Virus record (IMG/VR): IMGVR_UViG_3300045049_000270
Reading direction: 5' to 3' (one strand)
From: a virus
Taxonomy: Duplodnaviria; Heunggongvirae; Uroviricota; Caudoviricetes
DNA length: 64,000 bases
The first letter of the stretch is position 1. Each line of letters starts with the position of its first letter. Below, one piece after another: positions 32,747 through 55,556 of this stretch. The translations under genes and the position numbers were made by a program. The notes below the pieces were generated by a model. That model was not told the origin of the DNA and did not search any database. It saw only the letters and a list, made by a program, of their open reading frames with translations.

Positions 32747-32800
32747 TTGACACCATGTTCAGGTGAATGTATCATTTGAACATGGTAAAGAACAGGAGAT
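32747..32800 (+). promoter_or_regulatory. family-P promoter cassette (consensus copy)
   Basis: TTGACA-N17-TATCAT; CCATGTTCAGGTGAATG; TTGAACATGGTAAAGAACAGGAG. Confidence 0.65.
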
Positions 32801-32804
32801 AAAA

Positions 32805-33902
32805 ATGGTTATTTGGAAGGATATTGCTGTTCCCATCATCGAAAAACAGGTTCACATTCGTGCGCTTACTGGCGCCAAGTCTCGCCGTCGTTTCTCGTTT
32901 ATCAAGACTTTTGGCGATGTTCCTGTTGCCAACATTAACGAAATCACTGGCAAGCTTGAGCCTGTCGTCAACAATCGTGGTCGTGCTTATGCGGCACGCC
33001 TTCTGGAGCTCGACGCACAATTCCATTTTGTTGAGCAGCGTCCTCCCGCGCTGCGCGATGACGGCCCGGCGATCGCGCCTCACGGCCCTACATACCTCCC
33101 CGTCGTCGCGATTGAACGCGTCACTCACATCGGCGAGATGAACCCCGCCGCGCGCGACAGTACCGGGCAAAGCCTCGAAGGACATGCGCTGTCGGTCTCC
33201 ACGACACCCCACGCATGGGAGGAGATCGCCACCATCGGCGGTCGGCCGTGGTTTGAGCTGACGAACCACGATGCGAACTTCGTCGACGTCCTGGCACTGC
33301 TGGCCGACGAAACCCGGACAGCCGCATTACGCTCGTGGGCGCAGTCCGAAGGTCTGCTCCGACCGGAGCAACAATACCGCGCCTGGTATCTCGACACCGA
33401 TAGCGACGAATGGCACTACTTCGTCGCCGACTCGCGCGAAGCCGCATGGAGCGAGATCGATACCGGCGAATTCGATTCGCCCGACGATGCGCCTGGGCCC
33501 GACGGGAAACCGTGCATCGAACCGATCTGCCAATGGGTTGGCACGCCCGCCCTCGAATCGGCCGTCGGTCGAGTCGGTTTGAATCAGACCGAGAGCACGG
33601 ATATGGCCCTGATGATTTTCGTCGAGCGTCATTGTCCCGACATCGATGGCCTGTGGTGGACGGAGCAATACGATCCGCTGGCGCTCTCGGCGCCGCGCGG
33701 CGGAATACTTCCTGATCGGCTTGCTCGCTGGACGGCTACTCCGGTTTCCCGGCACCGGGTCGATGACGAAATCGCTTTGCCAGAAGCGAGCGAGATGCCA
33801 GTCCATCAGCCCGCGTTGAAGCCCGCTCATGAAGCGCAGCCAGTCGACGCAACGGCAAAGGATGCGCCGCATTCCCCACGTCGGCCCCCGCGGGCGCGAT
33901 GA
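32805..33902 (+). CDS. hypothetical protein encoded largely within a high-GC island
   Basis: family-P promoter at 32747; ORF becomes ~65% GC from ~32.9 kb; varied residue composition suggests real coding. Confidence 0.45.
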   Translation: MVIWKDIAVPIIEKQVHIRALTGAKSRRRFSFIKTFGDVPVANINEITGKLEPVVNNRGRAYAARLLELDAQFHFVEQRPPALRDDGPAIAPHGPTYLPVVAIERVTHIGEMNPAARDSTGQSLEGHALSVSTTPHAWEEIATIGGRPWFELTNHDANFVDVLALLADETRTAALRSWAQSEGLLRPEQQYRAWYLDTDSDEWHYFVADSREAAWSEIDTGEFDSPDDAPGPDGKPCIEPICQWVGTPALESAVGRVGLNQTESTDMALMIFVERHCPDIDGLWWTEQYDPLALSAPRGGILPDRLARWTATPVSRHRVDDEIALPEASEMPVHQPALKPAHEAQPVDATAKDAPHSPRRPPRAR

Positions 33903-34176
33903 CCTGATGCCTCGGCGCGGCAATGCCGTGCCGCGCCAGTTCGGCCACGCTGCCCGGCCCGACCACGCCGATCGGCACGGAGTCTGGCCAAGCGAAACCG
34001 GGGACTGCGCCGAGCGCACGTTCGATCGCGTTCGGCGAAACGAAGACGACGAGCGCATAACGCTCCAGCGAGGCGAAGGGAAAGAAACAACATGACAAGC
34101 GAACAGCGGAAAAAGAACGTGAGGGCAAGCGTGAAGTTGAGCGCGCAATGAAAACGAACAAGAGGGATATCTGAAT

Positions 34177-34410
34177 ATGCGAGCACGTGAACATCGTGGT
34201 GGATTGGCCGAATCACTGGCTACGGTCTTCAATTTCGAAACGAAGGAAGACTTGTTGACGGAAATTAACGAACGCATGGGGACACATTTTTGCCATGACG
34301 ACATTGCATTCCTTCATCAAGGAAAAGATGAACGCATTGGTTGGGATACTTACTTGGTGAGTGTGCGTGGCTATGGTGTGTTCGGATATACAGATGGGAT
34401 ACCAAAATAA
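34177..34410 (+). CDS. hypothetical protein (77 aa)
   Basis: AGAGGG RBS then ATG; stop overlaps the tpt1 start (ATAATG). Confidence 0.4.
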   Translation: MRAREHRGGLAESLATVFNFETKEDLLTEINERMGTHFCHDDIAFLHQGKDERIGWDTYLVSVRGYGVFGYTDGIPK

Positions 34411-34958
34411 TGAATGAAGACTTCAATAAAAAGTACAAAAAGCATAGTATTTGGTTGTCGTACTTGCTGCGACATGGTGCGAAAGAACAAAAAGTCAAAA
34501 TTGACAAACAAGCATTCATCCTAGTAGACGATGTGATAGCGGCGGGCAAGAAAGCAGGTTATGAATTTGATCTTGAAATCCTGAAAGGAATTGTTGCTAA
34601 CGATCAGAAGGGCCGTTATTCATTCAATGAAGACTTCACCAAAATTCGGGCAAACCAAGGACATTCCATTAATGTTGATCCTGGGTTGCAAAAAGCAGTG
34701 CCGCCAGTGATCTTGTATCACGGCACTTCAAGCGAAGCTTGGGAGATCATCAAGAAGAAAGGTCTCAATAAGATGACACGCACTCACGTTCATCTCACTG
34801 CTGACATTGAACTGGCTCGGAAACGGTTTCGAAAAACTGTAGTAATCGAAGTTGACTCTAAAGCTATGCTGGCTGATAAAGTTGATTTCTACAAGTCAGC
34901 AAATGATGTGTGGCTGGTTGATGCCGTAGATGCAAAGTATCTGAAGCTTGTGGAATGA
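34410..34958 (+). CDS. kptA: RNA 2'-phosphotransferase (Tpt1/KptA)
   Basis: near-collinear with E. coli KptA: WLSYLLRHG, GRYSF...IRANQGHS, VILYHGTSSEAWEIIKKKGL, RTHVHLTAD, NDVWLVD. Confidence 0.8.
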   Translation: MNEDFNKKYKKHSIWLSYLLRHGAKEQKVKIDKQAFILVDDVIAAGKKAGYEFDLEILKGIVANDQKGRYSFNEDFTKIRANQGHSINVDPGLQKAVPPVILYHGTSSEAWEIIKKKGLNKMTRTHVHLTADIELARKRFRKTVVIEVDSKAMLADKVDFYKSANDVWLVDAVDAKYLKLVE

Positions 34959-35907: not shown

Positions 35908-35963
35908 TTTACATCAAATTCATGCGAACATACTATCTGCGATAGGTAAACGAACAGGAGAAT
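35908..35963 (+). promoter_or_regulatory. family-P variant promoter
   Basis: TTTACA-N17-TACTAT; AATTCATGCGAACA; GATAGGTAAACGAACAGGAG. Confidence 0.45.
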
Positions 35964-35966
35964 CAG

Positions 35967-36305
35967 GTGATGGCCCGCCCGGGGAGCATCGAACAACGAA
36001 TATTGATGAAGCGACGTGCTCGTCGTATGGCCCATCCCTTCGAATCTTCGCCTGTGGCGGTAACGCTATACGGTGGTCAGACAGAACCCGTGCTGAAGGC
36101 AGATAAGGGCAAGATGGCGGGAAGTTGCAATCGTACCGCCTGCCAGGAACCTGGTGCAGTTTGGTGGAACCGTGGTTCGTATGCGTATTACTGCTACGAT
36201 TGCTCGAGGATGCTTAACCGAGCGAACCAGGATTTCCCAGAAGGCGATCTCTGCGTGCTTGATGTTAAGGCTCTTGAACTATTCGAGAAGAGGCAAGCAG
36301 CATGA
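35967..36305 (+). CDS. Cys-rich zinc-finger-like protein
   Basis: promoter at 35908; CNRTAC ... CYDCSRM; AGGAGAATCAG then GTG/ATG. Confidence 0.45.
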   Translation: MMARPGSIEQRILMKRRARRMAHPFESSPVAVTLYGGQTEPVLKADKGKMAGSCNRTACQEPGAVWWNRGSYAYYCYDCSRMLNRANQDFPEGDLCVLDVKALELFEKRQAA

Positions 36306-36979
36306 AGCTCTTTCATGGCACCACGAGTCGGCACCTACCTTCAATTCTGGCTGATGGTCTGACGCCGCGCAATCAAAACGAGATGAGTAACTGGGATCAT
36401 AGTATCCCCAGCAATGCTCAAACAGTATACCTGACTGATGCGTATGCTCTATACTTTGCAGCTCAAGCAAGCAAAGTTGATGAGCAGCTTGTCGTTCTAG
36501 AAATCGACACTAGTAAGATGAATCAGTATAAGTTTGTCGCTGATGAAGACGCGATTGAGCAAGCAACTCGCGGCCAGGACAAACTGCCGAAAGCTTGGGA
36601 TATGCATAAGCGAACCATGTTTTATCGCGAACGTGCTGATCAATACTCTTGGGAAGGAAGCCTAAAAGTGTTGGGCACTTGCGGATATCGCGGGGTAATA
36701 TCGCCACAAGCATTCACGAGAGTGGCTCTAGTTGAACCCAAACAGTTTGCAAGAATGGTTTGGTCTGGTTATGATCCGTCTATTACGGTAATGAATTACA
36801 GGATAGTTGGACATAATTATCGATTTGCTATGCGGTGGCTTTTTGATGAAAATGCTGAGCAAGAAGTTGATAATACAAACCCCTTCTCCGCAATTGGCAT
36901 TTTCAATATTCCCAAGACCCGTGAAGGCATTGAGGTTCTCGGGATTAATGAAGCAAAAATGCGGTTCATTGTAGAATAA
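36302..36979 (+). CDS. Tpt1/ADP-ribosyltransferase-fold paralog (catalytic lobe only)
   Basis: MKLFHGTTSRHLPSILADGL ... VYLTD parallels the Tpt1 LYHGT...GL...VHLTAD segment of the gene at 34410; ATGA overlap. Confidence 0.45.
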   Translation: MKLFHGTTSRHLPSILADGLTPRNQNEMSNWDHSIPSNAQTVYLTDAYALYFAAQASKVDEQLVVLEIDTSKMNQYKFVADEDAIEQATRGQDKLPKAWDMHKRTMFYRERADQYSWEGSLKVLGTCGYRGVISPQAFTRVALVEPKQFARMVWSGYDPSITVMNYRIVGHNYRFAMRWLFDENAEQEVDNTNPFSAIGIFNIPKTREGIEVLGINEAKMRFIVE

Positions 36980-37136
36980 GGCGTAAACCAGATTTAAATG
37001 AAACGTGGTATTCTTTTAAGATGAATAAGCATAAAATGCTTGTATAGGTGAGCAGGTGATGTTAGAGTTCATTTACACAAGCAGTTTTGTGGAAAGATTA
37101 GATCAAAAACTCACTTGAAGTAAAGGAGAATTTCAT

Positions 37137-37967
37137 ATGTCTTCGTTGGTTCTGCAATTCAACGGGGCGGCGGTCGAGCTGCTCCATGGTATCACCCGTC
37201 TTCGTGTCAAGACGATGAAGCGTGGGGGCGTTGAATACCTGGCCCTGCGCCCCAGCTACCGCGTTTCGGGTAAAAACATGCAAGCGCGCACGGCAAAAGC
37301 TGAAAGCGGAGCAACGCTGGTTGAAATTCCCGCAAGTTTCATCAAAGACCTCAAGTATCCTCGCCCCGAGCTCGGCACATCATTCCTGTTCCACAACGAC
37401 GGCTACGGATGGTTCACCTTGCGTGATCTTCCGGACGATGCAGCCGAATCGACCCCCACTTTGATCGTTGCGGACAGCGCGTTGATGAAGACAGCGACCC
37501 TGTCCGATGCAAAGGCTGAAGAACCGGCAAAAGAACCGAAGCAAGCCAAGGCCGACAAACTGCCCAAGCCCGACAAATTACCCAAGGCAGCAAAAGCTGA
37601 CAAGCCGAAAGCTGAACGCAAGGGCAAGTCGAAGCAAGTTGAAGCACAGCCCGAAGCGCCGACTGAGCCAACCAACGCTCAACCCGAAACGAACGCTGGG
37701 GCGACGGGTGGTGTAACGACAGAGCAACCCAGTGCGACGGCTGGTGAAGCACAAGACACGAGCTCGGCAGAGGCACTGATGCAGCACTTCGGCGCTGAAA
37801 GCAACGGCGAGCAAGCAACAGGCGAAACGACGAATGCACCGGCTGGTGATGCACAAGTCGAAGGCCAGACACCCGCTGCGGCAGCCGAAGCAAAAAATAC
37901 AACCGCTGCCGTGAAGAAAGCGTCGACTTCCAAGAAGGGCCAAGACAAGAAGGAAGCGCAAGCGTAA
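37137..37967 (+). CDS. protein with ~110 aa globular N-terminus and long Lys/Ala/Glu/Pro-rich low-complexity tail
   Basis: AAGGAG RBS; tail has KAEEPAKEPKQAKADKLPKPDKLPKAAKADKPKAE repeats; terminator at 37988. Confidence 0.5.
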   Translation: MSSLVLQFNGAAVELLHGITRLRVKTMKRGGVEYLALRPSYRVSGKNMQARTAKAESGATLVEIPASFIKDLKYPRPELGTSFLFHNDGYGWFTLRDLPDDAAESTPTLIVADSALMKTATLSDAKAEEPAKEPKQAKADKLPKPDKLPKAAKADKPKAERKGKSKQVEAQPEAPTEPTNAQPETNAGATGGVTTEQPSATAGEAQDTSSAEALMQHFGAESNGEQATGETTNAPAGDAQVEGQTPAAAAEAKNTTAAVKKASTSKKGQDKKEAQA

Positions 37968-37987
37968 GTTAATGTTACGCAATAATC

Positions 37988-38024
37988 AAGGCTAACCCCT
38001 TAAAGGGGTTAGCCTTTGTTTCAT
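37988..38024 (+). terminator. rho-independent terminator
   Basis: AAGGCTAACCCCTTAAAGGGGTTAGCCTTTGTTTC. Confidence 0.7.
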
Positions 38025-38036
38025 TGAGGTGGTGAG

Positions 38037-38309
38037 TTGGACAGCTATGAATTAGTGTATCCAGCCGCAATACCAGTGAAAGTGCATAAAGGTGGGCGAT
38101 TTGTGTTTGCCCGAAGCGTTGCTATCTTTGTATTGAATATGTTGCAGGAAGATGTAGACGAAGATGAGCAACTTGAATACACCACAATGGATAACGTAGA
38201 ACTAGGTGAATGTCTCCTTGCGGCAGGAGCCATACATGATAGTGTATTCGGTGGAGTTGTCGTTGATGGTGCTCCAAACGGTTTCATTCAAGCAGTTCAA
38301 ATAACATAG
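38037..38309 (+). CDS. hypothetical protein, paralog pair member 1
   Basis: VYPAAIPVKV...GGVVVDGAPNGF parallels the downstream gene. Confidence 0.4.
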   Translation: MDSYELVYPAAIPVKVHKGGRFVFARSVAIFVLNMLQEDVDEDEQLEYTTMDNVELGECLLAAGAIHDSVFGGVVVDGAPNGFIQAVQIT

Positions 38310-38317
38310 GTGATACT

Positions 38318-38602
38318 ATGAATGTTGAAAGACGAGCCGATTTTTTAAACGAACCAGTATATCCTGACTCCATTCCTATGAGTATCCCAGCTGGTTACAA
38401 ATGGGTATTCGCAAGGGAAGTAGCACTATCACTCTTGGGTAAGCAATTGCATTCTGACCCTAAGAGCGTAGGATTACATAGGCTAACCAATGATCAACTC
38501 GGCCAACAACTGGTCGAAATGAAAGTTCTATATCCCGAATATTTGGGAGGAGTTGTTGATGATGGTGAGCCCAATGGAATCATGCCTTTCCCCATTAAGT
38601 AA
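38318..38602 (+). CDS. hypothetical protein, paralog pair member 2
   Basis: VYPDSIPMSIP...GGVVDDGEPNGI. Confidence 0.4.
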   Translation: MNVERRADFLNEPVYPDSIPMSIPAGYKWVFAREVALSLLGKQLHSDPKSVGLHRLTNDQLGQQLVEMKVLYPEYLGGVVDDGEPNGIMPFPIK

Positions 38603-38965
38603 TTAACCACCCCATGGTTGGTGGTCTGCGATAATACAGATCACCTTATTCTCACGAGCCAATTCCATCGCTTTTTCGTTTAGTGGATTATAGTCATCCG
38701 GACAGGGATGACTATCGACCACACAAACGTTAAATCCTGCTTCTTTCAATGCTTTGTGAATCACTGCTATCTCGCAATGGATAGTTGATCCAGGACCACT
38801 AACACGAATATCAATTCTAGATTTCATTTCAAAAATAATTCCGCATAAATCAATAGCAAGATTGCAGGAATAGCAAAACATCCTGCAATCAGTCCAAAGT
38901 AATCTCTTGCCTTTTGTGGGGCTAATTTCTTTAACCAAACTTTCACTTTTTCTTAGCCCGGACAT
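38603..38965 (-). CDS. hypothetical protein (minus strand)
   Basis: 120 aa ORF; overlaps the next minus-strand gene by 23 nt. Confidence 0.4.
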   Translation of the reverse strand: MSGLRKSESLVKEISPTKGKRLLWTDCRMFCYSCNLAIDLCGIIFEMKSRIDIRVSGPGSTIHCEIAVIHKALKEAGFNVCVVDSHPCPDDYNPLNEKAMELARENKVICIIADHQPWGG

Positions 38966-39272
38966 GCGCAGAGCGCAATACAGCCTCTGCGCCCAAAAGA
39001 AGCTTGTGGGCTTCTTTTAAACTCTGGATGGCCGCCAGAACGTCTTCTGGCGTGTTGGTGAGGTCTCGGCGATATATTCCCTGAAATCCATACGCAGCAT
39101 CGCCAACTTTGTGCATAGCATGCGCCGTTCGTTTCAGCAAATTATCAAATTCTTCACTTCCTGGTTGAACTGGACCATACCGACGTAGCATGTTCGATCC
39201 GTTCGGATCATCTTTTGCCGCCATAGCATGAGTCACAGCGTCCCACATTGACGTAGGTTTCTTATCGCTCAT
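38943..39272 (-). CDS. hypothetical protein (minus strand)
   Basis: 109 aa ORF with start near 39272. Confidence 0.4.
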   Translation of the reverse strand: MSDKKPTSMWDAVTHAMAAKDDPNGSNMLRRYGPVQPGSEEFDNLLKRTAHAMHKVGDAAYGFQGIYRRDLTNTPEDVLAAIQSLKEAHKLLLGAEAVLRSAHVRAKKK

Positions 39273-39353
39273 TTCTTTGTGCGCTGTTAATTAGTTTGAC
39301 ACACCACTAAATAACTTTGTGGTGCATGCCAAATTATAACAGGAGCCAGTGAT

Positions 39354-39839
39354 ATGAGCAATCCGCGCGCCGAAAATTCCCTAAGTGCTGGTCTTTTTGC
39401 TGGTCAAACTCAACTCTGTTATGGCTGGGAACTCTCACGATTCACCTGTCGCAACGAAACTATTCTATCTCTGAAACAATGTCAGCAGTTGATTAAAGAA
39501 GTCTGGAAGGAACTCAATATGAAAGGTCCAGCACCAAAAGTGATTGATGGTCGTGGCAGCATTTATGCTCGTAGTGATTGTAAAGAAATTCACCTCCCCA
39601 AATGGTCAAGAAACAATATTATTGTTTTGCATGAATTAGCTCATACTTTGACAAATTTCATAGATGAAACTGATAGTGGTGAACACGGTGGTATCTTTGT
39701 TCACGTCATGATCACGCTTTTGACTAGATTCGCAGGCTATAAATATGGGGAACTTTCGAAATCTGCGCAAGCATTTGGCTTGAAGGTTACGAACATTAAA
39801 TTAGCCACAAAGCTGAAAAACTTCACAAATGCAGCATAA
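39354..39839 (+). CDS. putative zinc metallopeptidase (HExxH; SprT/WLM-like)
   Basis: IVLHELAHTL motif; AGGAGCCAG then ATG. Confidence 0.5.
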   Translation: MSNPRAENSLSAGLFAGQTQLCYGWELSRFTCRNETILSLKQCQQLIKEVWKELNMKGPAPKVIDGRGSIYARSDCKEIHLPKWSRNNIIVLHELAHTLTNFIDETDSGEHGGIFVHVMITLLTRFAGYKYGELSKSAQAFGLKVTNIKLATKLKNFTNAA

Positions 39840-40038
39840 AATTCTAGATCGTATCCGTGATATGGCATACGACCAATCAGTAACATTTGAGGATATCGAC
39901 CAGTTTGTTGATGAATGCATCGAATTTTTGATGCGCGAAGCTACACCAGAACTTAATTTCAAGTCTGATATCTATGAATTAGAGAATGCGCGACAGAATG
40001 CTATTCTCATAAAACTATCGATCACACCACAACGGTAA
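39829..40038 (+). CDS. hypothetical protein (69 aa)
   Basis: overlaps the upstream gene by 11 nt. Confidence 0.35.
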   Translation: MQHKILDRIRDMAYDQSVTFEDIDQFVDECIEFLMREATPELNFKSDIYELENARQNAILIKLSITPQR

Positions 40039-40042
40039 ACAT

Positions 40043-40654
40043 ATGATTTACAATTTAACTCTGCCAAAGCTGTCAGATACACTCACATCAAGCTTGATAA
40101 CTCAAGCAACAAATATGTTCACAGCTGATAATATTACAAGCTTCAATAGTCGTCATCCTTGGCCATATACAAGTGCGCAAATGACCGCTTCTAATATTGT
40201 TGAACGTATGGGGTGTATGATTCCAGATCCCACTGATTTGGCAGCAGCTATTTCGTCTTCACTACCATTTGCTGTGGATTATGAATTCTTTATTATGAAG
40301 AACACCACAGCTAGTACTCCTGCCCTTATGCCACCAAGCCGTGGATTGGCTGGTTCAGTTGCAATCAATTATTACCTTCAACTTGGCGGCAGCACCTTAT
40401 ATAATTTCTTCTTTAACGAAGCCGTCAATCAAGCAAATACCGTATATGATCCAACATTAACACCAACGTCGTCATATACTATGACCGCTGGCTCTTGGTA
40501 TGCATTTGATGCTACCATGGTACGCTCAATTTCTGGGATTACTGATACTTGTATTGTAGTCAGTTTGGCTCCAACTGATACCTCAATTACATTCCCAGAT
40601 TTACTACAACAACATCCTAGTTTGTTTGGACCGTCATATACACCAAACGCATAA
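40043..40654 (+). CDS. hypothetical protein, paralog A of the gene at 41733
   Basis: shared N-terminal pattern LP.LS..LT..LI..A...F....-----RPYPF/WPY-S..I..NIVER and FIM.N; terminator at 40655. Confidence 0.45.
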   Translation: MIYNLTLPKLSDTLTSSLITQATNMFTADNITSFNSRHPWPYTSAQMTASNIVERMGCMIPDPTDLAAAISSSLPFAVDYEFFIMKNTTASTPALMPPSRGLAGSVAINYYLQLGGSTLYNFFFNEAVNQANTVYDPTLTPTSSYTMTAGSWYAFDATMVRSISGITDTCIVVSLAPTDTSITFPDLLQQHPSLFGPSYTPNA

Positions 40655-40687
40655 AGGAAAACCCTGCATTTGCAGGGTTTTCCTTTT
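40655..40687. terminator. bidirectional terminator between convergent genes
   Basis: GGAAAACCCTGCAAATGCAGGGTTTTCC with A/T runs on both sides. Confidence 0.65.
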
Positions 40688-41654
40688 AGATTGTCCACAA
40701 TCGTTGAGTTCCTTTTGGCTGTTTCAAAAATTCAGTAAACTCAAATGCATCCGCATACAGAATATTCTTCCTACCGGCACGTTGTAATTCTATCTGTTTT
40801 TTCCAATAATCATCTTTGGAATATGTTTCAAACCCATGCTGTTTACTTCTATGGAGTAAACCGTCCCAATTCGCTTGACAAACAAGTGGCTTGAAATATG
40901 AAGTGAACATGCGCCATGTCCAATATGGGTTTTTACTATCTTCCTTAAAAGCATCAAACATACTCTTATACGCACCAGCCAAAAATGCATCACAAAATAC
41001 ATTATCAATTTGTGACATATAGAGCTCGGGTGTGTATTTAAAAAAGATTGATGTGCCTTCTACCCCTTCATTGACATAACAACGTTGTAGGTAAGTGGCT
41101 GAGATTTCAATCATAAGTTTACCACCGACCATATCAAATACTGGGTTACCGGCTCCTATTAAAATTGTGTGAGTATCTTTGTAAAGATCCAATAAATGAG
41201 CTTGCACGATTTTACGATAAAAGTGTATGCAATATTTTTGTGCAAGATATGTACCGCGCCCAGCTAAAAACGCTTCTACCGAATACTTGACACAGGTATG
41301 TTTGATATTATGAAGTTTGCAGAATTCAATTGCATAGTTGACGTCATCGGCATTAATGATATTACCGTCGTTATCTAACCAAGCCATAGTTACGGCTTCG
41401 AAGTCCTTCTTTATTTCTTTCAATGCCAAACAAACGATCTGTGAATCTAATCCAGCAGACAACCCAACTATAAATGGTTTCTTCCATTCATTTGCCATTA
41501 ATGTGGCTGCTCGAATTGTTTCTACATGAAAGGAATCGTGTGTGCCAGCACTTGTAAATTGGACTTTGTAAGTTGACTCGGTTGACGTTGGCAAATTATA
41601 CCAACCGTCGTCCCAACCCCAATGATAATGGTCGTTGTGTGTACCTGAATTCAT
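40686..41654 (-). CDS. PP-loop ATP pyrophosphatase (adenine nucleotide alpha-hydrolase superfamily; QueC/AsnB-like)
   Basis: FIVGLSAGLDSQIVCLAL = SGGxDS PP-loop; 322 aa; minus strand, sharing the bidirectional terminator at 40655. Confidence 0.6.
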   Translation of the reverse strand: MNSGTHNDHYHWGWDDGWYNLPTSTESTYKVQFTSAGTHDSFHVETIRAATLMANEWKKPFIVGLSAGLDSQIVCLALKEIKKDFEAVTMAWLDNDGNIINADDVNYAIEFCKLHNIKHTCVKYSVEAFLAGRGTYLAQKYCIHFYRKIVQAHLLDLYKDTHTILIGAGNPVFDMVGGKLMIEISATYLQRCYVNEGVEGTSIFFKYTPELYMSQIDNVFCDAFLAGAYKSMFDAFKEDSKNPYWTWRMFTSYFKPLVCQANWDGLLHRSKQHGFETYSKDDYWKKQIELQRAGRKNILYADAFEFTEFLKQPKGTQRLWTI

Positions 41655-41732
41655 GATATTCTATAAGGTTTAAAGTGGTATTTAACTATATTTTCATAAC
41701 TAAATACCTGCAAAAACGTTCAAGGATATTAT

Positions 41733-42329
41733 ATGTTTCAAGTAGTTCCTTTACCTACGCTTTCACCAGAGTTGACTGATAAGTTAATTAAATTGGCTAA
41801 AGATCTATTTTATGACGAAGAATTACAACGTCAGTGGATAACCACTCGTCCATATCCATTCTCTACTGAAATTCTTGATCATTACAATATTGTCGAACGC
41901 ATCAGTTTCAATATTGGTGACTATATTGATTTGTGTGAATTGAAAGCAATAATGGAACCGGCTTTACCAATTGAGGCCACCTATCAATTGTTTATTATGC
42001 GGAATATTCGGCCAAATAGAAAAGCTATCTTTCCAGCACATACTGATAGAAAACGTGGTGTTGCACTTAACTATCTTCTTCAAAGTGGTGGTGAAAATGT
42101 AAAACTACATTTTCATGAGCCTGCCGCTTCTGTTGCCAATACATTTTTCAACGAAATCAACGCTCCCATAAGAGCAACTTTTGACACACCACTTGGGGCC
42201 TGGGGGGCATTGGACGCAACCGACATTCATAGTGTTACTGGCATCGAAGGTGATCGTATCATATTCACATTGAGTCCTTGCGATCAAACACTTTCCTACC
42301 ATGACTTCTTAGCCAAAATGATGCCTTGA
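41733..42329 (+). CDS. hypothetical protein, paralog A' of the gene at 40043
   Basis: MFQVVPLPTLSPELTDKLIKLA...RPYPFSTEILDHYNIVERI...FIMRN. Confidence 0.45.
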   Translation: MFQVVPLPTLSPELTDKLIKLAKDLFYDEELQRQWITTRPYPFSTEILDHYNIVERISFNIGDYIDLCELKAIMEPALPIEATYQLFIMRNIRPNRKAIFPAHTDRKRGVALNYLLQSGGENVKLHFHEPAASVANTFFNEINAPIRATFDTPLGAWGALDATDIHSVTGIEGDRIIFTLSPCDQTLSYHDFLAKMMP

Positions 42330-42398
42330 GGTATTCATCTGTTGACTCCTTCACCAAATGAACGTAAACTTGGTTTATGGTCAAGAGCGGAGGAAAAG

Positions 42399-43205
42399 AT
42401 GAGCTTGCGCAATCTTGGTATTCACTGTGATATGGCTTGCCTGGAGCAAGGTTCTGGTTCATGGCAACAACAAGATGTTGACTTGCTCAAATCGGAAAAG
42501 GGTTTGGCAAAGATCTATCGCTCGTTCGACAAAACGACGTTCGATTTCAACATCAATATCCTCATGCAAAAGCATGCCGTTTTTGACTCTGACAAATTAA
42601 ACAAAATCATTCCTAGCGAACAATTGGTTGATCCAACTGCCATAAATGTTTGTCATACGACGAATGTTACTACTAACAGCAACTATATCCCCATGAATGC
42701 TTGGATTATGGTGCATCGCATGGCACATGCCAACCAAGCACGTGGTTACGTATCCGAGCAGTCTTTGATCGATACGCTTGCTGAAGCCTATGAGCGATTG
42801 ACTGGTGATAAGGCAAAAGTGTTATCAGGGCGAATCCAAGGCTTTGGTCGGGATCTAGAAGCATTGTTGATGCTTCTCATGACAATGCGGTCTGCTCGTA
42901 TGTGTAATATCAGCAGTGATTTGGATTTTTTGGGTGAACTACTGGCACAATATGTGATAACTGGCAAGATTTCATTGCTACCAGTCGAAGGTTGGGACCA
43001 GCGCATCGATATCATGAATGCAGTTAAGGATCGCCAGCATTTAGTGCGTAGTCATTATCAAGTAATTGATAATCTTTACATGAAGTCACAAGAACGTTAT
43101 ACTGCTCACCAACTTAGCGAAGAGCTTGCATACCTTGAGCGTGATCTGAACATGATCGTGCATGGCATGCTAACACAATGTATGGGCAAGCTTATCCACT
43201 TTTAA
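42399..43205 (+). CDS. hypothetical protein
   Basis: GGAGGAAAAG then ATG MSLRNLGI; the track start is further upstream. Confidence 0.45.
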   Translation: MSLRNLGIHCDMACLEQGSGSWQQQDVDLLKSEKGLAKIYRSFDKTTFDFNINILMQKHAVFDSDKLNKIIPSEQLVDPTAINVCHTTNVTTNSNYIPMNAWIMVHRMAHANQARGYVSEQSLIDTLAEAYERLTGDKAKVLSGRIQGFGRDLEALLMLLMTMRSARMCNISSDLDFLGELLAQYVITGKISLLPVEGWDQRIDIMNAVKDRQHLVRSHYQVIDNLYMKSQERYTAHQLSEELAYLERDLNMIVHGMLTQCMGKLIHF

Positions 43206-43307: not shown

Positions 43308-43382
43308 GCGTCTGTAGCTCAGTGGAAGAGCAGGGCCCTTACAAGGCCAAGGTCGGGAGTTCAACCCTCTCCAGACGCACCA
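43308..43382 (+). tRNA. tRNA-Val (anticodon UAC), CCA encoded
   Basis: hand-folded cloverleaf: acceptor GCGTCTG/CAGACGC, D-arm GCTC-AGTGGAA-GAGC, anticodon loop CTTACAA, T-arm GGGAG-TTCAACC-CTCTC, then A-CCA. Confidence 0.7.
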
Positions 43383-43423
43383 TTTTGGGGAATTAGCTCA
43401 GCTGGCGAAAGCTGGCCCCCGTT

Positions 43424-43500
43424 CTCCGGTTAGTATAGTCTGGTTAGTATACGTGGTTTGGGACCATGGGACGCAAGTTCGAATCTTGCACTGGAGACCA
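43424..43500 (+). tRNA. tRNA-like gene, possibly tRNA-Pro (UGG); D-arm non-canonical
   Basis: acceptor CTCCGGT/ACTGGAG, anticodon arm CGTGG-TTTGGGA-CCATG, T-arm GCAAG-TTCGAAT-CTTGC, A-CCA end; D-region holds a GGTTAGTATA direct repeat I could not fold cleanly. Confidence 0.4.
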
Positions 43501-46539: not shown

Positions 46540-46598
46540 TTTGCGGAATGGTTCATATGAACATAAAATAATGATATGGTATACCACAAGGGGGTGTG
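46540..46598 (+). promoter_or_regulatory. family-P promoter cassette
   Basis: TTGCGG-N17-TAAAAT; GGTTCATATGAACA palindrome. Confidence 0.5.
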
Positions 46599-46600
46599 TG

Positions 46601-47230
46601 ATGATAGTAGGAGGTCTTCCTCATAATTTGGGTGTTATTGAATGTGATGCGTCTGAGATGATGTTTATTCAATATATGCCTATTCAAATGCCTGGATGTG
46701 GTCTTCGTATTCCGGATAACCTGATGTGTTTCAAGCCGTTGATTGATCGAGTCATTCGTGATGCTGAGGAGACTTATTTCTCTTTTAATGATGAGTATTA
46801 CATTTATATCACAGCCAAGCATTTGTATGTTACTCCTGAGAATTTGGGTAATCGACCTGGGTGGCATATTGATGGTTTTGGGACGGATGATATAAATTAT
46901 ATTTGGTCTGATGGTGCTCCTGAAAACAGTACTGAGTTCTGCGATCAGGCATTTGATATTTCAGAAGATGAGCATCAGTCGATGGTTGACATGACTGCGC
47001 AAGCTGATGAAGGTAACATTGTCACCTATCTACCCAAGACGTTACTAAGACTTGATAACAAGATCGTTCACAGAACCTCCACAAGAGCCGTGGCGGGGTA
47101 CCGGACATTTGTTAAGTTGTCTTTGTCGAAACAGATTTACAATCTCAAGGGTAACGCGCACAATTATTTGTTCGACTATGCTTGGAACATGATTGAGCGT
47201 GATGCCGAACGAAATGTGACTTCAAAATAG
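46601..47230 (+). CDS. hypothetical protein
   Basis: family-P promoter at 46540; AGGGGGTGTGTG then ATG. Confidence 0.5.
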   Translation: MIVGGLPHNLGVIECDASEMMFIQYMPIQMPGCGLRIPDNLMCFKPLIDRVIRDAEETYFSFNDEYYIYITAKHLYVTPENLGNRPGWHIDGFGTDDINYIWSDGAPENSTEFCDQAFDISEDEHQSMVDMTAQADEGNIVTYLPKTLLRLDNKIVHRTSTRAVAGYRTFVKLSLSKQIYNLKGNAHNYLFDYAWNMIERDAERNVTSK

Positions 47231-49540: not shown

Positions 49541-49597
49541 TTGACTGTTATACCAAATGAACGTAATATACGAACATGGTAGACAAACAGGAGAGCA
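49541..49597 (+). promoter_or_regulatory. family-P promoter cassette
   Basis: TTGACT-N17-TAATAT; ACCAAATGAACG; CGAACATGGTAGACAAACAGGAG. Confidence 0.6.
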
Positions 49598-49599
49598 CA

Positions 49600-49962
49600 A
49601 TGAACAAGACGCAAGCGCAGAAGCTGAAGAAAGAGCAGATTCAGTCGTTGCTCGCAAAGGATGATCGTGCTGTTGTCCGTGCTCTCGTTCGTATTTACGA
49701 ACGCCAAACGGCTGATGAGCAACGCAGCGAAGAAACGAAGCACCATAACGAAGTAGGCTTCCGCGCAAACGATGCAAAGTACATGACGATGGCTGCCAAG
49801 TTTGCGTTGCGCAATGGTCGGCTTGATGACTATCATCTGCAGAAGGTGCGCGGTCGAATCATGCATTACTGGCGCCAACTAGCTGAGATTGCTGAAGAAC
49901 AGAATGCGAAACGTGTTGCGATGGGTAAAGAAACGGTTCCCCTCTGCGGCCGCCAAAAGTAA
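49600..49962 (+). CDS. hypothetical protein
   Basis: family-P promoter at 49541; AGGAGAGCACA then ATG MNKTQAQ. Confidence 0.45.
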   Translation: MNKTQAQKLKKEQIQSLLAKDDRAVVRALVRIYERQTADEQRSEETKHHNEVGFRANDAKYMTMAAKFALRNGRLDDYHLQKVRGRIMHYWRQLAEIAEEQNAKRVAMGKETVPLCGRQK

Positions 49963-50016
49963 GCCAGTTTTAGATTATGTTGATGCCATATGTGTTAGCA
50001 TACGGCATCAACGCTA

Positions 50017-50211
50017 TTGGAATTTCAAATGTATTTCGTAACAACGATTTGGCGCAGTGCATTACACATTGATCCTATGCGACTCTTTCCAGAAGAAGAG
50101 CAAGCACAAAACTATGCTCGTGATTTGAAAAATTACGGCGAAGTTCGCATTTACCTACTCAGCTCTGATGCTCCACCAAAACGCATCAAGCTAAAGGAAC
50201 GTGATGAATAA
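50017..50211 (+). CDS. hypothetical protein (64 aa)
   Basis: short ORF with weak RBS. Confidence 0.35.
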   Translation: MEFQMYFVTTIWRSALHIDPMRLFPEEEQAQNYARDLKNYGEVRIYLLSSDAPPKRIKLKERDE

Positions 50212-50244
50212 TCCAAGGTTAGTATCATATACTGGAGTGCAGTA

Positions 50245-50487
50245 ATGCTATTCATCATTCTTTGGATACTTGCCGGTAGCATCGCATTAGTGCTGTTCAT
50301 CGCAACAGGTGGTATGCCTGTAGTATGTAGAAGCGCATATTTACAAGATGGCAAGAACCTTGCAATTTTCCTTTTTGGTTGGTGGCTCATCGGTGGTATC
50401 GGCTTGATATACATGATTGTCGTTCTTACTGGTATGGGAACGATGTATCTGCGTTCTAAGATTATCAAACAATCAAATTCGAGATGA
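50245..50487 (+). CDS. small membrane protein
   Basis: three hydrophobic helices; GGAG RBS. Confidence 0.4.
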   Translation: MLFIILWILAGSIALVLFIATGGMPVVCRSAYLQDGKNLAIFLFGWWLIGGIGLIYMIVVLTGMGTMYLRSKIIKQSNSR

Positions 50488-50498
50488 GGTGTAGTGAT

Positions 50499-50528
50499 AA
50501 AATGGTGGGCTAAGTAGCCCACCATTTT
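50499..50528 (+). terminator. rho-independent terminator
   Basis: AAAATGGTGGGC-TAAGTA-GCCCACCATTTTG. Confidence 0.65.
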
Positions 50529-50562
50529 GACTACTAAAACATGGCTACTGTAACATGGTTGA

Positions 50563-50916
50563 ATGAAGACCATTGTTTCAATTACCCATAAAAATCCACT
50601 ACTAGAAAATATCCAAAATTTGGACGCAGTAAAAACTGATGAATATGCTGGATTCGTTTATATGTGGCGATGTATTCCTGAAGACAAATTTTATATTGGT
50701 AGCCACAAAGGTAAAGTCACTGACGACTATCGTGGATCTGGTAAATTATTCAAACAGATATTCGAGCATTATGGCATCACTCAATTTGAACGCATTATAC
50801 TAGAATATGTTGCTGATGAAGATGTATTGAAAGTACGAGAGCAATTTTGGATGACCAAGTTTAATGCGGTGGTATCTAAACGCTTTTTGAATTCAAAGAA
50901 CGCCAAACGCACATAA
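50563..50916 (+). CDS. GIY-YIG endonuclease domain protein
   Basis: GFVYMW...KFYIGSHKG...REQFWMTKFNA matches the GIY-YIG catalytic motifs (GIY / YIG / R...FW..ELN). Confidence 0.6.
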   Translation: MKTIVSITHKNPLLENIQNLDAVKTDEYAGFVYMWRCIPEDKFYIGSHKGKVTDDYRGSGKLFKQIFEHYGITQFERIILEYVADEDVLKVREQFWMTKFNAVVSKRFLNSKNAKRT

Positions 50917-51071
50917 AATGACTGTATTTGAAATAAGTGCCATTCGTCTGGAACAAATGCTTCAGCGGTCCTTGATTTATTATAAGGAAATCATGACACC
51001 AGAAGATATTTTTCAACTGGATCAAGTACAACGACGAATAAAAGGATACAAACAAGCGTTGAGTGATTTTT

Positions 51072-51590
51072 TCAACGATAAATCCTAACCCCTTTAATTG
51101 GTGATTCCGGTTCTTGCTTGATAACGACACCGTGACGTTTGGCGAGTGATTCTTTATACGCAACCATATACTGACTCTTTGTCATCACACCAGTAATTGG
51201 TAAATCTGCTAGGCGATGATCCACGGTCCTGCAGAATGTACTTTCAATCCAGACACCACCGGTTTCTGGAAACCAGACCAAGGTGTTGGTTTTCAATTCA
51301 ACCGCCATTTTGCTAGATGCTTGAATGAAGATATCACCGCCTGTCCACATTGCAGCTTGACCCATTGAATCAGGTGTGTGACCCATTGTTACACCAAGCA
51401 TTTCAACACCTTGAGCCTTACGGATGTTTTCGTATTTCAGCATCTTTAATGCAGTCTTAAACCATGGCAATGGGGTATCAGCCGCATCAATCTCTTCATC
51501 AGTCATCGAATCTACTTTGGCAACTAATTCAGCAATTGCTGGTTTTACCTTTGCTTCGTATTCCAAATAGCCAAGTAATGGATGTTTCAT
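51072..51590 (-). CDS. hypothetical protein (minus strand); weak resemblance to the C-terminal half of a metallo-beta-lactamase fold
   Basis: GHTPDSMG ... TGGDIF; start near 51590 with GAGGG RBS. Confidence 0.35.
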   Translation of the reverse strand: MKHPLLGYLEYEAKVKPAIAELVAKVDSMTDEEIDAADTPLPWFKTALKMLKYENIRKAQGVEMLGVTMGHTPDSMGQAAMWTGGDIFIQASSKMAVELKTNTLVWFPETGGVWIESTFCRTVDHRLADLPITGVMTKSQYMVAYKESLAKRHGVVIKQEPESPIKGVRIYR

Positions 51591-51618
51591 AAACCCTCAC
51601 TATAAATGTCTGGTATTT

Positions 51619-51981
51619 ATGAGCTTGCGTATGACATATGATGAAAGTATAATTGTTGAAAATGATTATGAGTTCATTATGAAAACACTGATTCGTAGAC
51701 ATAAGCATTATCGGATAAAACTTTGGCTTGATCTTTACGGATGGTGGGATGCCGTAATTCGTGACAATCGTACGAATAGATGGTACACCTTAAAAACAAC
51801 TTACAGAAGCCTTGATGCTGCTCTGGAAGAAGTACAGGAAACGTTCGAATCGATTGAATTAAAACCTTACAGTGTGCGTATGTACAGTACGGGAAAACTC
51901 GGTAATAATCATTCATTCACTATCAAATACAAACCGCTCAAGTCAAGCAAGTCAACACGTTTTCGACTTTATCGCAACTGA
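51619..51981 (+). CDS. hypothetical protein (120 aa)
   Basis: ORF starting immediately after the divergent minus-strand gene. Confidence 0.4.
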   Translation: MSLRMTYDESIIVENDYEFIMKTLIRRHKHYRIKLWLDLYGWWDAVIRDNRTNRWYTLKTTYRSLDAALEEVQETFESIELKPYSVRMYSTGKLGNNHSFTIKYKPLKSSKSTRFRLYRN

Positions 51982-52059
51982 TCTGGCAAGATTCACTTGC
52001 AAATTGGCCACCTTGAAGCTATCATTCGCCATATCTAGAATGATTTCGAGGAGCCAACG

Positions 52060-52731
52060 ATGGCAACCCACCAGAAGCTCGTAACACCTGAAGTCCTTCA
52101 TTACGAAAAGTTGAAGATGGCTCTTCGTTATCAGTTGATGGGACGAGCTTCTCGTGATTCTGTTTGGTACGTTGCAATCAAGGCACTAGACCTTGGCCTC
52201 ATGTATCATACGGGTTTTCGCAAAGACGGCAAAACACCGGAATTCCAGCACCAGATCGAAATTGCGCTGTATCTCCTGACCATGGAGAAACTGTTGATCG
52301 ATGCGCCACGCACGATCGCTGATGCTCTGCTTCATGACCTAGGTGAAGATTACGGTCATCAAATCAGCTTCGAAGAAATTGGCGAGCAAACTGACAAAAT
52401 CATCGAAATTGATTGTCGTCTACTTGCGAAAGAATACCGTGGTGAAAGGAAAACCACAGATGAATACTTTGAACCACTGGCCGGTAATTTCCGTGTGTCA
52501 GTTGTGAAAGGCAGCGATCGCGTGCATAATATGCGAACGATGGCTGGTGTGTTCAAGCTGGAAAAGCAAATCAGTTACTGCGATGAAACGGAAGAACATT
52601 TCTTCCCGTTCTTGAAAGCTGCACGGCGCAATTTCCCTGAACAAGAACCAGTTTACGAAAACATTAAATTCAACCTTACAACTCAGCTACGAATTTATCG
52701 TAGCGTAAACGCTCAAGGCATTGCAGCATGA
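52060..52731 (+). CDS. small alarmone hydrolase: (p)ppGpp hydrolase HD domain (SpoT/Mesh1-like)
   Basis: HQIEIALYLL, ALLHDLGEDYG, RVSVVKGSDRVHNMRTM parallel the RelA/SpoT hydrolase motifs (LLHDvvED; ADRLHNMRTL); GAGGAGCCAAC then ATG. Confidence 0.7.
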   Translation: MATHQKLVTPEVLHYEKLKMALRYQLMGRASRDSVWYVAIKALDLGLMYHTGFRKDGKTPEFQHQIEIALYLLTMEKLLIDAPRTIADALLHDLGEDYGHQISFEEIGEQTDKIIEIDCRLLAKEYRGERKTTDEYFEPLAGNFRVSVVKGSDRVHNMRTMAGVFKLEKQISYCDETEEHFFPFLKAARRNFPEQEPVYENIKFNLTTQLRIYRSVNAQGIAA

Positions 52732-53450
52732 TTCTTACCGCAGCTGAAGAGAGCCTATTGAAATTGGCTCTTACGATCGACATCAATTGTCTGGAGAAGA
52801 TGCTGGCTGGTGAATTGGCACGGCGTTATCCTGATGGTGAGTTTTACGAATACGATCCGAGCACTGACCGTCAATGGAAGTATAACTCGAGGATGAGTAC
52901 AAGGTGCGGTTTCAAATATAAATTTGAACGTGACGGTCAAAGCTATAAAGCTGAAGTTGTTATCGCAGCTATATCACAAAGCACCAAAAACATCAACACA
53001 CATATGGGCATTAGTTTTTGTGGCTTCAACAAAAGCAACAAACCTTCAATTACCAACATTAGTCAAGGACATACTAGATTTTGGTGTGCTGACGCGTTTT
53101 GGTGTGCTGAAGGATGCTCTGATGACGTGTATGCCATAAAACTTGGTGACACGATAAGAACGGTTTTCACCAAGTTTGAAAAAGCAGAGAATGAAATCCC
53201 AGCTTATTTGGAAAAGCTTGATCAGCAAAGGGCTGAAGCTGAAGAACAACGTGCTAATTTACGGGTTCAACGAAGTTCTGCACGAGATCGAAAGAAACAA
53301 TTGGTGTTTCAGAATCACAATGTCACATCAACACCAGAAACAGAACTACTGTTCAAGGTGTTGAGTAGGCTGAATAATGAAAAAGCAATCAGCAAAGCAT
53401 TCGGTGAGCTATTGCCATTGATTGGGGGTAAAAATGGCCAGCAAAGCTGA
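52728..53450 (+). CDS. family-B tandem paralog 1
   Basis: N-terminus AAEESLLKLAL; C-terminus KAFGELLPLIGGK; ATGA overlap. Confidence 0.5.
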   Translation: MILTAAEESLLKLALTIDINCLEKMLAGELARRYPDGEFYEYDPSTDRQWKYNSRMSTRCGFKYKFERDGQSYKAEVVIAAISQSTKNINTHMGISFCGFNKSNKPSITNISQGHTRFWCADAFWCAEGCSDDVYAIKLGDTIRTVFTKFEKAENEIPAYLEKLDQQRAEAEEQRANLRVQRSSARDRKKQLVFQNHNVTSTPETELLFKVLSRLNNEKAISKAFGELLPLIGGKNGQQS

Positions 53451-54117
53451 AGCCTCACTTGTCAAAGTAATCCTTTCCTATAACCTAAACGACCTTGAGA
53501 AGGCGTTCTGTAAAGCGTTGGCGTCCCGTAATCCTCAAGGATCGTTCAAATTACACAAAATCAAGGGAAGTGGTAAATCGATTTCAAAGGTTGTCGAAGA
53601 AGGTGATTCACAACTCTCTTTCACTTACACGTTTGATGCCCCTAGTGGTAAACAAGTGCGCATCACCGCAGAAGTAGCAGGATTTTCTGGTAGTCTAATA
53701 TTCAGCATCAAGAGATATGGTTATGTTGATGGGCAAGCATTCACGGAAAGCTTGCCACATTACGATTTCCATCTGCAGGTTTGGGAATCAATAATTCCTG
53801 GTACATCTTTGGGTGAATATCAAGGGCTTATTAGCACGATGCTTAATAAAATTCGATTAGCTGAAGAACATGATATAGAAGACGTGATCGCAGTAGCCAG
53901 CAGCAATGCTAAAACACGTAAAATCAAGACCGAGCAACGCAAAAACGCTCGTACACTGAAGTCAATAAATTTGAAGCAACAAGTCTTCGAGAAGTACAAT
54001 ATTCACATCACTAGGCCCCCAGCCAATATTGAAACCTTGTACGAAGCAGTTAGTAAGCTTGGTACCTTTGACAAAATCAGTGAAGCATTTGGCAAGATTT
54101 TACCACTTCTGAAGTAG
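53434..54117 (+). CDS. family-B tandem paralog 2
   Basis: MASKAEASLVKVIL ... EAFGKILPLLK. Confidence 0.5.
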   Translation: MASKAEASLVKVILSYNLNDLEKAFCKALASRNPQGSFKLHKIKGSGKSISKVVEEGDSQLSFTYTFDAPSGKQVRITAEVAGFSGSLIFSIKRYGYVDGQAFTESLPHYDFHLQVWESIIPGTSLGEYQGLISTMLNKIRLAEEHDIEDVIAVASSNAKTRKIKTEQRKNARTLKSINLKQQVFEKYNIHITRPPANIETLYEAVSKLGTFDKISEAFGKILPLLK

Positions 54118-54818: not shown

Positions 54819-54826
54819 TAATAACC

Positions 54827-55555: not shown

Positions 55556-55556
55556 G

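Follow-up and report, generated by a model that had tools for sequence, protein, structure and literature searches.

The window analysed here, a 64,000-nt stretch of phage DNA (IMG/VR record IMGVR_UViG_3300045049_000270), contains at 39354–43205 an AT-rich region in which a minus-strand gene for a 322-aa PP-loop protein lies between two plus-strand genes for related proteins of 203 and 198 aa, named parA and parB in this study. The locus raises the question of which of its genes belong together, how they came to lie where they do, and what the encoded proteins might do for the phage. An earlier note on this DNA had read the whole region as one horizontally acquired module beside a tRNA integration hotspot, and all of the open reading frames (ORFs) that it listed were recovered at the same positions. 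Comparison with relatives narrows the module to three genes, which encode a PP-loop ATP pyrophosphatase, a catalytic-type Fe(II)/2-oxoglutarate (2OG) dioxygenase and a paralog of the latter that is predicted to be non-catalytic. The source is a huge uncultured phage (218–524 kb), with the identical parB protein found on contigs of 218.7 to 523.6 kb, and searches with the region and five family members (megablast and tblastn) found no similar deposited phage among 50,697 phages.

An accessory, relocating block of three genes

The borders of the block were mapped against L035, a 523.8-kb IMG/VR relative whose flanks share ~70% nucleotide identity with the window. The collinear stretch in L035 starts with orthologues of the genes at 37137, 38037 and 38318 and then a minus-strand gene pair, continues with the gene for a 161-aa HExxH protein (78% aa identity), the gene for a 69-aa protein (66%) and 263 bp of unrelated sequence, and ends with a family-P promoter (a recurrent promoter of the window, described below), the gene for a 269-aa protein (50%), tRNA-Val, tRNA-Ala and tRNA-Pro. 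None of parA, the PP-loop gene and parB is present in L035. Nucleotide homology breaks sharply at 39995 and restarts at 42333, and variation is therefore confined to ~40040–42335. What exists as a unit is an accessory block of 2.3 kb, parA–PP-loop–parB, and not the whole region, as the HExxH, 69-aa and 269-aa genes and the tRNAs are contiguous in L035 without it. The tRNA genes reported to follow the region are indeed there, yet they are conserved backbone and lend no support to an integration hotspot: tRNA-Val is also found in L002 and L035, L035 has kept the tRNAs though it lacks the cassette, and the 269-aa gene and its promoter stand between them and the cassette. Neither target-site duplication nor terminal inverted repeats were found at the block borders, and the idea of transposon-like borders was dropped on that ground.

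Mapped on the collinear backbone, the PP-loop gene occupies three different sites, those of the window, L002 and L001/L004. The block of L002/L003 lies in the slot equivalent to window 33.0–34.1 kb and consists of the 69-aa gene, a paralog of parA and parB, a 388-aa gene and the PP-loop gene on the opposite strand, a further paralog, and SmpB, and L001/L004 have the PP-loop gene by itself, amid tandem copies of the gene family found at window 30082. The gene is antisense to its neighbours at all three sites, and also in the distant L037 (43% identity). The comparison across relatives thus bears out the proposal of an accessory, relocatable block around the PP-loop gene with its flanking paralogs.

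The proposal that the block was acquired horizontally was not borne out. Identity of the PP-loop protein is 47% with L002 and 53% with L001, against backbone medians of 58% and 52%, respectively, and the GC content of its gene follows each host genome at 3–5 points lower. As divergence and GC are both in step with the backbone, the gene appears to have long resided in this phage clade, where it relocates and can be dispensed with, and the pattern fits an old accessory gene that has been rearranged or lost rather than a recent import; recent horizontal transfer on grounds of composition was rejected for the same reason. The low GC of the region noticed earlier is genuine but modest, at 0.396 (0.5th percentile of same-size windows; mean of the whole window 0.439), with 0.384 (1.7th percentile) for parA–PP-loop–parB and lower values in single genes elsewhere in the window (0.35 at 27373 and at 50563).

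Within the block, the convergent parA and PP-loop genes are separated by a terminator with a perfect 16-bp stem and T-runs on both strands. For the PP-loop gene, a candidate promoter resembling the sigma70 type (TTTGCA-18-TATAGT, minus strand, 41714 to 41685) was recognised by consensus match only, and the non-coding flanks of the gene show no conservation between relatives. The features of the region are collected in Table 1.

Table 1. Positions of genes and signals in and next to the region, in window coordinates (RBS, ribosome-binding site; PWM, position weight matrix)
Feature	Position	Strand	Basis or remark
HELAH-motif protein, 161 aa	39354-39839	+	ORF; backbone gene, outside variable cassette
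Acidic protein, 69 aa	39829-40038	+	ORF; backbone in L035; directly precedes cassette in L002
parA, 203 aa, degenerate Fe(II)/2OG-dioxygenase-fold paralog (predicted)	40043-40654	+	Paralogy to parB, residue mapping
Bidirectional intrinsic terminator, hairpin AAAGGAAAACCCTGCA tt TGCAGGGTTTTCCTTT	40653-40686	both	Sequence; inverted repeat I2, 100% complementary
PP-loop ATP pyrophosphatase, 322 aa, SAGLDS, stand-alone	40686-41654	-	ORF, motif and profile
Divergent intergenic region, AT-rich, 78 bp	41655-41732	.	Candidate PP-loop promoter and parB RBS (AAGGA)
parB, 198 aa, catalytic-type Fe(II)/2OG dioxygenase (H103-x-D105...H166...R175)	41733-42329	+	
Family-P promoter copy TTGACTCCTTCACCAAATGAACGTAAACTTGGTTTATGGTCAAG	42342-42388	+	PWM 31.3 bits; drives 269-aa gene
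268/269-aa protein	42399-43205	+	ATG start; ORF of 287 aa when read from TTG at 42342
tRNA-Val(UAC) and tRNA-Pro(UGG)	43308-43500	+	Conserved backbone context, outside cassette

The slot taken by the PP-loop cassette and SmpB in L002 corresponds to 32763–34153 in the window, where a 27-aa remnant of SmpB (85% identity) is left at 34073–34153. The full-length SmpB of L002 (8711–9157, minus strand), a tmRNA-binding ribosome-rescue factor (PF01668, E 4e-53), adjoins the cassette. The window has a GC-rich segment (0.648 at 33001–34000) within ORF 32763–33902, of which the N-terminus is backbone and the rest is foreign-looking. The 388-aa gene of L002 (11003–12169) is an orphan confined to L002/L003, co-oriented with the PP-loop gene and immediately downstream of it; its product gave no family match bar a weak galectin-like stretch (E 0.004), and the PDB sequence search returned nothing usable. 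In L001 (8678–11394), three divergent, tandemly arranged paralogs of the window 30082–30477 gene family flank the PP-loop gene. Depending on the genome, the PP-loop gene is thus bracketed by paralogs of one or the other of two unrelated families, which may be a coincidence in arrays rich in paralogs or may hint at how the gene relocates.

The PP-loop enzyme and the dioxygenase-fold paralogs

The SAGLDS motif of the 322-aa protein lies at residues 66–71, with S66, G68, D70 and S71 conserved at 98–100% in 70 relatives, and the family profile matches PP-loop domains in the PDB over residues 53–165 (NadE E 3e-6, the best, and MnmA E 5e-6). By motif and profile the protein belongs to the PP-loop ATP pyrophosphatase superfamily (HUP class), as had been recognised, with adenylation as its predicted activity. 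It had been placed more narrowly in a QueC/AsnB-like family; none of the curated models for QueC, AsnB, TilS, MnmA and NadE scored above its cut-off. Sub-threshold Pfam and NCBIfam matches to QueC, Asn_synthase, ATP_bind_3, NAD_synthase, MnmA, TilS and LarE cover the PP-loop domain only; NadE TIGR00552 reaches 17.2 bits against a cut-off of 63.65, its PDB profile match spanning ~110 residues, PF00733 reaches 19.0 bits against 21 over residues 59–131 only, and the protein falls outside TIGR01536 and NF033561. There is no room for an N-terminal nucleophile (Ntn) glutaminase domain, because only 55 residues precede the PP-loop.

The family is sizeable, phage-restricted and uncharacterised. Besides the window's own fragment, four close relatives share 47–53% identity with the protein, and a profile search over 1.84 billion representatives returned 885 relatives at E<=1e-3, most of them 290–340 aa long. 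The family motifs are NNHYKWGW, SFRxE, LSGGxDSQ, NxHD, FFxYTPEL and KP..Y..WPEL..R.K..GFE. All ten members sampled come from metagenomes and, where named, are "hypothetical protein". Among 185,579 species genomes of bacteria and archaea there were no close relatives of the clade, and a metagenome scan added none. No window protein matched PHROGs, the unnamed phrog_16728 matching distant PP-loop relatives only. One T4-like viral contig (L008, 697–9104) carries four paralogs of the family within 9 kb.

Cysteine reaches 25% or more at alignment columns 46, 75 and 112 only, and C112 alone is conserved (84%), in a generic helix. No Cys pair, CxxC or Zn cluster is conserved across the family alignment, which speaks against a thiolase-type or QueC-type reaction and for amidation or ligation. 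The window protein itself has no QueC match (PF06508/TIGR00364), no C-terminal Zn-binding Cys cluster and no que genes nearby, so that the locus is not plain QueC with queD/queE, an outcome that the earlier note had named as one that would refute it.

These results bear on the suggestion that the locus serves DNA hypermodification, through TET/JBP-like oxidation with PP-loop amidation or through 7-deazaguanine, or that it is a QatC/Cap9-like bacterial defence module. QueC-family PP-loop proteins do act in DNA 7-deazaguanine pathways and in the QatABCD and type IV CBASS defence systems (10.1101/2025.04.06.647259; PMC13279940), and weak QueC matches occur in 28–29 of the 70 relatives in Pfam and PADLOC (28/70 in PADLOC, best 2.9e-8). 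However, PADLOC gave no match for the window protein, its neighbours or any other protein of the module, and neither queD/queE/DpdA/TGT nor QatA/B/D or Cap10 partners are encoded nearby. The cassette is also dispensable in L035, which would be unusual for genome-wide DNA modification. With the missing Cys cluster and with no close relatives in bacterial genomes, this explanation is very unlikely, and the mobile defence island proposed earlier is likewise set aside, as the relatives are all from phage-like contigs.

A role in RNA or tRNA modification, in which a TilS/MnmA-like PP-loop enzyme and an AlkB/ALKBH8-like RNA oxidase would re-tune tRNAs or translation, is also quite unlikely. It draws on the best single-sequence NCBIfam matches of the protein, MnmA (E 2.5e-4) and TilS_N (E 5.9e-4), and on neighbours related to translation in the close clade, with tRNA-Val/Pro lying 1 kb downstream, the SmpB gene beside the L002 cassette, and a weak PTH2 with an RNase_T beside the P0008 gene. 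These scores are, however, far below cut-off (MnmA 20.1 bits against 284; TilS_N 19.8 against 93.6) and cover the generic PP-loop domain only. The catalytic Cys pair is lacking, the protein is slightly acidic (isoelectric point 6.45; family median 6.47) and no RNA-binding domain was detected in it. The tRNAs are present in L035 without the cassette, and the contexts of distant members resemble small-molecule operons (GNAT, SDR, aminotransferase, acyl-carrier protein).

True paralogy of the 203-aa and 198-aa proteins, already noticed earlier, is confirmed (32% identity over 189 residues, E 9e-32), and the two belong to a family of eight unique sequences among 5.8 billion clusters. Pfam has no match for the seven paralogs searched, and PADLOC and NCBIfam have none for parA or parB. 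An AlphaFold2 model of parB built from seven sequences (predicted local distance difference test, pLDDT, 88.5; predicted template modelling score, pTM, 0.86) has a predicted double-stranded beta-helix (DSBH, jelly-roll) fold, and Foldseek searches of this model against the PDB and BFVD gave concordant dioxygenase folds, with 125 viral BFVD proteins at E<=1e-3 and a best template modelling (TM) score of 0.74. The residues H103-x-D105, H166 and R175 are kept in five of the eight members (parB, P0006, P0007, P0159 and P0158, the third copy of L002); in the model, H103 ends strand 98–103, H166 lies in strand 165–171 and R175 in strand 174–182. With its metal triad and 2OG-binding Arg intact, as assigned by alignment and modelled strand position, parB is a catalytic-type Fe(II)/2OG dioxygenase.

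The paralog on the other side of the PP-loop gene, parA, has all four ligand positions replaced (S, G, R and C) and is predicted to be a non-catalytic, degenerate homologue of parB. At these positions the two L002 copies on either side of the PP-loop gene carry A/S, D, N and C, the Cys at the Arg position being common to them and parA. The core common to the window and L002 is thus the 69-aa gene followed by a degenerate dioxygenase gene that converges on the PP-loop gene. The degenerate copies cluster weakly (68% bootstrap), with the L002 pair being a lineage-specific duplication (51% identical). The paralogs, which had been left as an unassigned partner of the PP-loop enzyme, are therefore better described as a pair with a Fe(II)/2OG dioxygenase fold, one catalytic-type and one degenerate.

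Gene neighbourhoods and possible functions

Dioxygenase genes recur beside the PP-loop gene in distant parts of the family. T4-like contigs of up to 231 kb (L008–L018) have the order SMC-like ATPase, GNAT, PhyH dioxygenase, PPPDE-like, PP-loop, two unknowns and SegE, the PhyH gene overlapping the PP-loop start in L009, and in L041 the gene of a PF13640 (2OG-FeII_Oxy_3) oxygenase overlaps it by 14 nt. The order is fatty-acid desaturase, unknowns, PP-loop, SDR, unknown and an Asp/Arg-hydroxylase-type dioxygenase (Asp_Arg_Hydrox) in L019–L024; SDR, nitroreductase, GNAT, PhyH, two unknowns, class-III aminotransferase, PP-loop and GNAT in L042; and PP-loop, GNAT, two unknowns and a PF13640 oxygenase in L043. 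An AspH-type (Asp_Arg_Hydrox) gene lies 3 kb upstream in L039, which also has a GNAT gene, and L044 has an acyl-carrier/ketosynthase/fatty-acid-hydroxylase cluster. A recognisable dioxygenase is found within ~3.5 kb of the PP-loop gene in ~6–7 of the 9–10 lineages sampled, and at least four different sequence families are represented among these dioxygenases; the chance expectation is ~20%, a rough estimate from published gene counts (Sullivan et al., 2010; PMC3037559) that assumes lineage independence. Tandem ~206-aa genes beside the L043 homologue were considered as relatives of parA and parB and rejected, having no similarity and a different composition.

GNAT, SDR, aminotransferase and fatty-acid desaturase/hydroxylase genes also recur in co-directional arrays with PP-loop genes, and these arrays look like small-molecule tailoring operons. 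The recurrent company of dioxygenase and GNAT, SDR or aminotransferase genes suggests a pathway of coupled hydroxylation and ATP-dependent amidation or ligation. The reading preferred here, for which confidence is evenly balanced, is that the block is an accessory two-enzyme tailoring unit, a hydroxylase and an ATP-dependent amidoligase with the degenerate dioxygenase as partner, acting on a small molecule or a protein. The two enzyme classes and the accessory, relocating nature of the block are shown; that the enzymes are coupled, which reactions they carry out and what parA does are inferred. In such a unit, parB would hydroxylate or oxidise its substrate using 2OG and O2, and the PP-loop enzyme would adenylate that substrate, or one related to it through the pathway, at a carboxyl or carbonyl group. 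Displacement of AMP by an amine or by ammonia would then give an amide or ligation product, in NadE/AsnB-type chemistry and not sulfur transfer. The parA protein may be a non-catalytic binding or adaptor subunit, and the target that the three proteins together tailor during infection would be a small molecule or a side chain of a protein.

Several observations weigh against this reading. The PP-loop gene and parB are divergently transcribed and share no operon, L001/L004 and L037/L038 have a PP-loop gene without a recognisable dioxygenase neighbour, and the lineages counted above are not all independent. When compared by hhalign, the paralog family gave no significant match to the PhyH-type (Prob 2%) or the AspH-type (Prob 0.1%) neighbours, and the dioxygenases at different loci are therefore not orthologous partners; taken with the lack of a Pfam match, this also means that the dioxygenase fold is called from the structure model only. 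The second position of SAGLDS is Ala in the window protein and Gly in 97% of the family, the AlphaFold2 model of the PP-loop protein (four sequences, pLDDT 45) was unusable and gives no view of its C-terminal half, and the enzyme activities and the substrate are themselves predictions. Because T4-like cyanophages have several 2OG-Fe(II) oxygenase and PhyH genes and small genes of these kinds are multi-copy in large marine phages (PMC3037559), co-localisation may in part reflect shared residence in hypervariable islands.

A rival explanation is that the PP-loop gene and the dioxygenase paralogs are independent accessory genes with separate substrates that merely co-reside in the hypervariable islands of small genes in large phages. 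The abundance of such oxygenases in cyanophages, the presence in BFVD of over 100 small phage proteins that share the fold of parB and the loci without dioxygenase neighbours would all agree with this, as would transcription of the PP-loop gene as an antisense unit of its own that ends at its own terminator and the third, catalytic-type L002 paralog standing alone ~7 kb from the PP-loop gene. However, adjacency of the degenerate DSBH gene and the PP-loop gene is kept in the window and L002 despite 47% PP-loop identity and a different backbone site, and has thus survived both relocation and deep divergence. The start/stop overlaps with a dioxygenase gene in L041 and L009, and the count of lineages set against its rough expectation, likewise speak against independence, which is considered somewhat unlikely.

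Should the tailoring unit be real, the phage enzyme pair, with the pseudo-dioxygenase kept as adaptor, might install an undescribed covalent modification, by hydroxylation and then ATP-dependent amidation or conjugation, on a macromolecule of host or phage such as a component of translation, or make an infection-specific metabolite, and the ~885-member PP-loop family would then define a widespread and unrecognised phage tailoring pathway; this more specific proposal is unlikely as it stands. The block may also serve an anti-defence or takeover function via chemical modification. The role of small 2OG-Fe(II) oxygenase genes in large phages has been a question since the first cyanophage genomes, and the present analysis supplies such oxygenases with a recurrent partner, a sizeable, unannotated and phage-only PP-loop family. 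If the coupling is true, it would mean new ATP- and 2OG-dependent tailoring chemistry during infection. The compact three-gene cassette, with its built-in contrast between an active and an inactive paralog, is directly synthesisable and testable. Even if the coupling is false, the cassette has its correct borders, an orphan family has a fold, and the readings as a defence island and as a tRNA integration are removed.

The surrounding backbone and comparison with known systems

The HExxH, 69-aa and 269-aa genes are backbone and not parts of the cassette. The HELAH...EHGG pattern of the 161-aa protein, which had been called a HExxH protease, is kept in its L035 orthologue, and the protein is a candidate small SprT/Rv0185-like metallohydrolase; the motif stands, and the SprT-like PF10263 (E 0.007, 16.6 bits against a cut-off of 25.6) and TIGR04338 HEXXH_Rv0185 (E 2.8e-5, 24 bits against 90) scores are below cut-off, with no sequence match in the PDB. 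The 69-aa protein has a further orthologue in L002 (12847–13059, 68% identity), beside a degenerate DSBH gene. The 269-aa protein, the L035 orthologue of which is encoded directly after the 69-aa gene, has no match in Pfam, PHROGs, PADLOC, NCBIfam or the PDB. A tRNA-Ala(UGC) lies beside tRNA-Val in L035 (8045–8120) and L002 (2174–2250) and is missing from the window (43383–43423).

The family-P promoter is real, with 46–49 plus-strand copies in the window (consensus TTGACACCATGTTCATATGAACGTACCATTTGAACATGGTAAACAAC) that score up to 57 bits in a PWM scan in which shuffled sequences reach at most 9.5 bits. Contrary to the description of the region as lacking this promoter, one copy lies directly upstream of the ATG of the 269-aa gene, so that this gene counts as an ordinary transcription unit of the backbone; the TTG from which the 287-aa ORF is read is in fact the -35 box of this copy. 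It is kept in L035 and marks the right border of the variable cassette. The description does hold for the remaining gap from 35908 to 42342, which at 6.4 kb is the second largest after that from 49541 to 60708 (11.2 kb). The promoter (TTGACA-17-TAyCAT) has a conserved inverted repeat, CCATGTTCA...TGAACATGG, around the -10 box and transcription start (e.g., sites 32747, 45624 and 61091), which might serve a phage regulator as operator or form a hairpin at the 5' end of the RNA. The minus strand of the window has two weak copies only.

Elsewhere in the window, a 229-aa ORF at 46541–47230 with an H-x-D...H...R pattern and no sequence match in the PDB may be another dioxygenase; its true start is downstream, because the annotated start is the TTG of a family-P promoter. 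Auxiliary genes at window 10312–11547 and 15756–16865 and at L005 2678–3226 (window ~34410–34958) include a CoaE-like kinase fused to a phage-HD-phosphohydrolase-like region and a membrane acyltransferase (Acyl_transf_3). Genes for a Tpt1/KptA-like RNA 2'-phosphotransferase, Band_7 and HD_4 are listed in the gene table of the source contig.

A close parallel to parA and parB is found in the 2OG-Fe(II)/PhyH genes of T4-like cyanophages, which are likewise small DSBH proteins (~200 aa) occurring as divergent paralogs in an accessory region (Sullivan et al., 2010; PMC3037559), and cyanophage proteins are among the 125 BFVD matches of the parB model. They differ in that parA and parB form their own sequence family, with a maintained ligand-less subgroup and a physical tie to a PP-loop gene. 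On the side of the PP-loop protein, QueC, QatC and Cap9 belong to the same superfamily, and there is precedent for QueC-family PP-loop enzymes that can conjugate to proteins (10.1101/2025.04.06.647259; PMC13279940). The window protein is unlike these in having neither a QueC match, a Cys/Zn cluster, nor 7-deazaguanine or Qat/CBASS partners.

The 2OG amino-acid and peptidyl hydroxylases (proline hydroxylases 4p7x/1e5r, P4H/PHD2 and AspH) share 9–17% identity with parB, which is much shorter at 198 aa and has no substrate-recognition domains, so that a substrate cannot be read from the comparison. Amidoligases of the NadE/asparagine-synthetase type are like the PP-loop protein in that the domain follows a ~55-residue N-terminal segment and there is no catalytic Cys. 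The PP-loop protein differs from NadE and AsnB in scoring below their cut-offs, in having no glutaminase domain, in its family-specific N- and C-terminal motifs and in being phage-only. The pairing itself has a counterpart in the clavam and carbapenem pathways, which likewise combine a PP-loop enzyme with a 2OG oxygenase: beta-lactam synthetase, a PP-loop amidoligase, works with the 2OG oxygenase clavaminate synthase.

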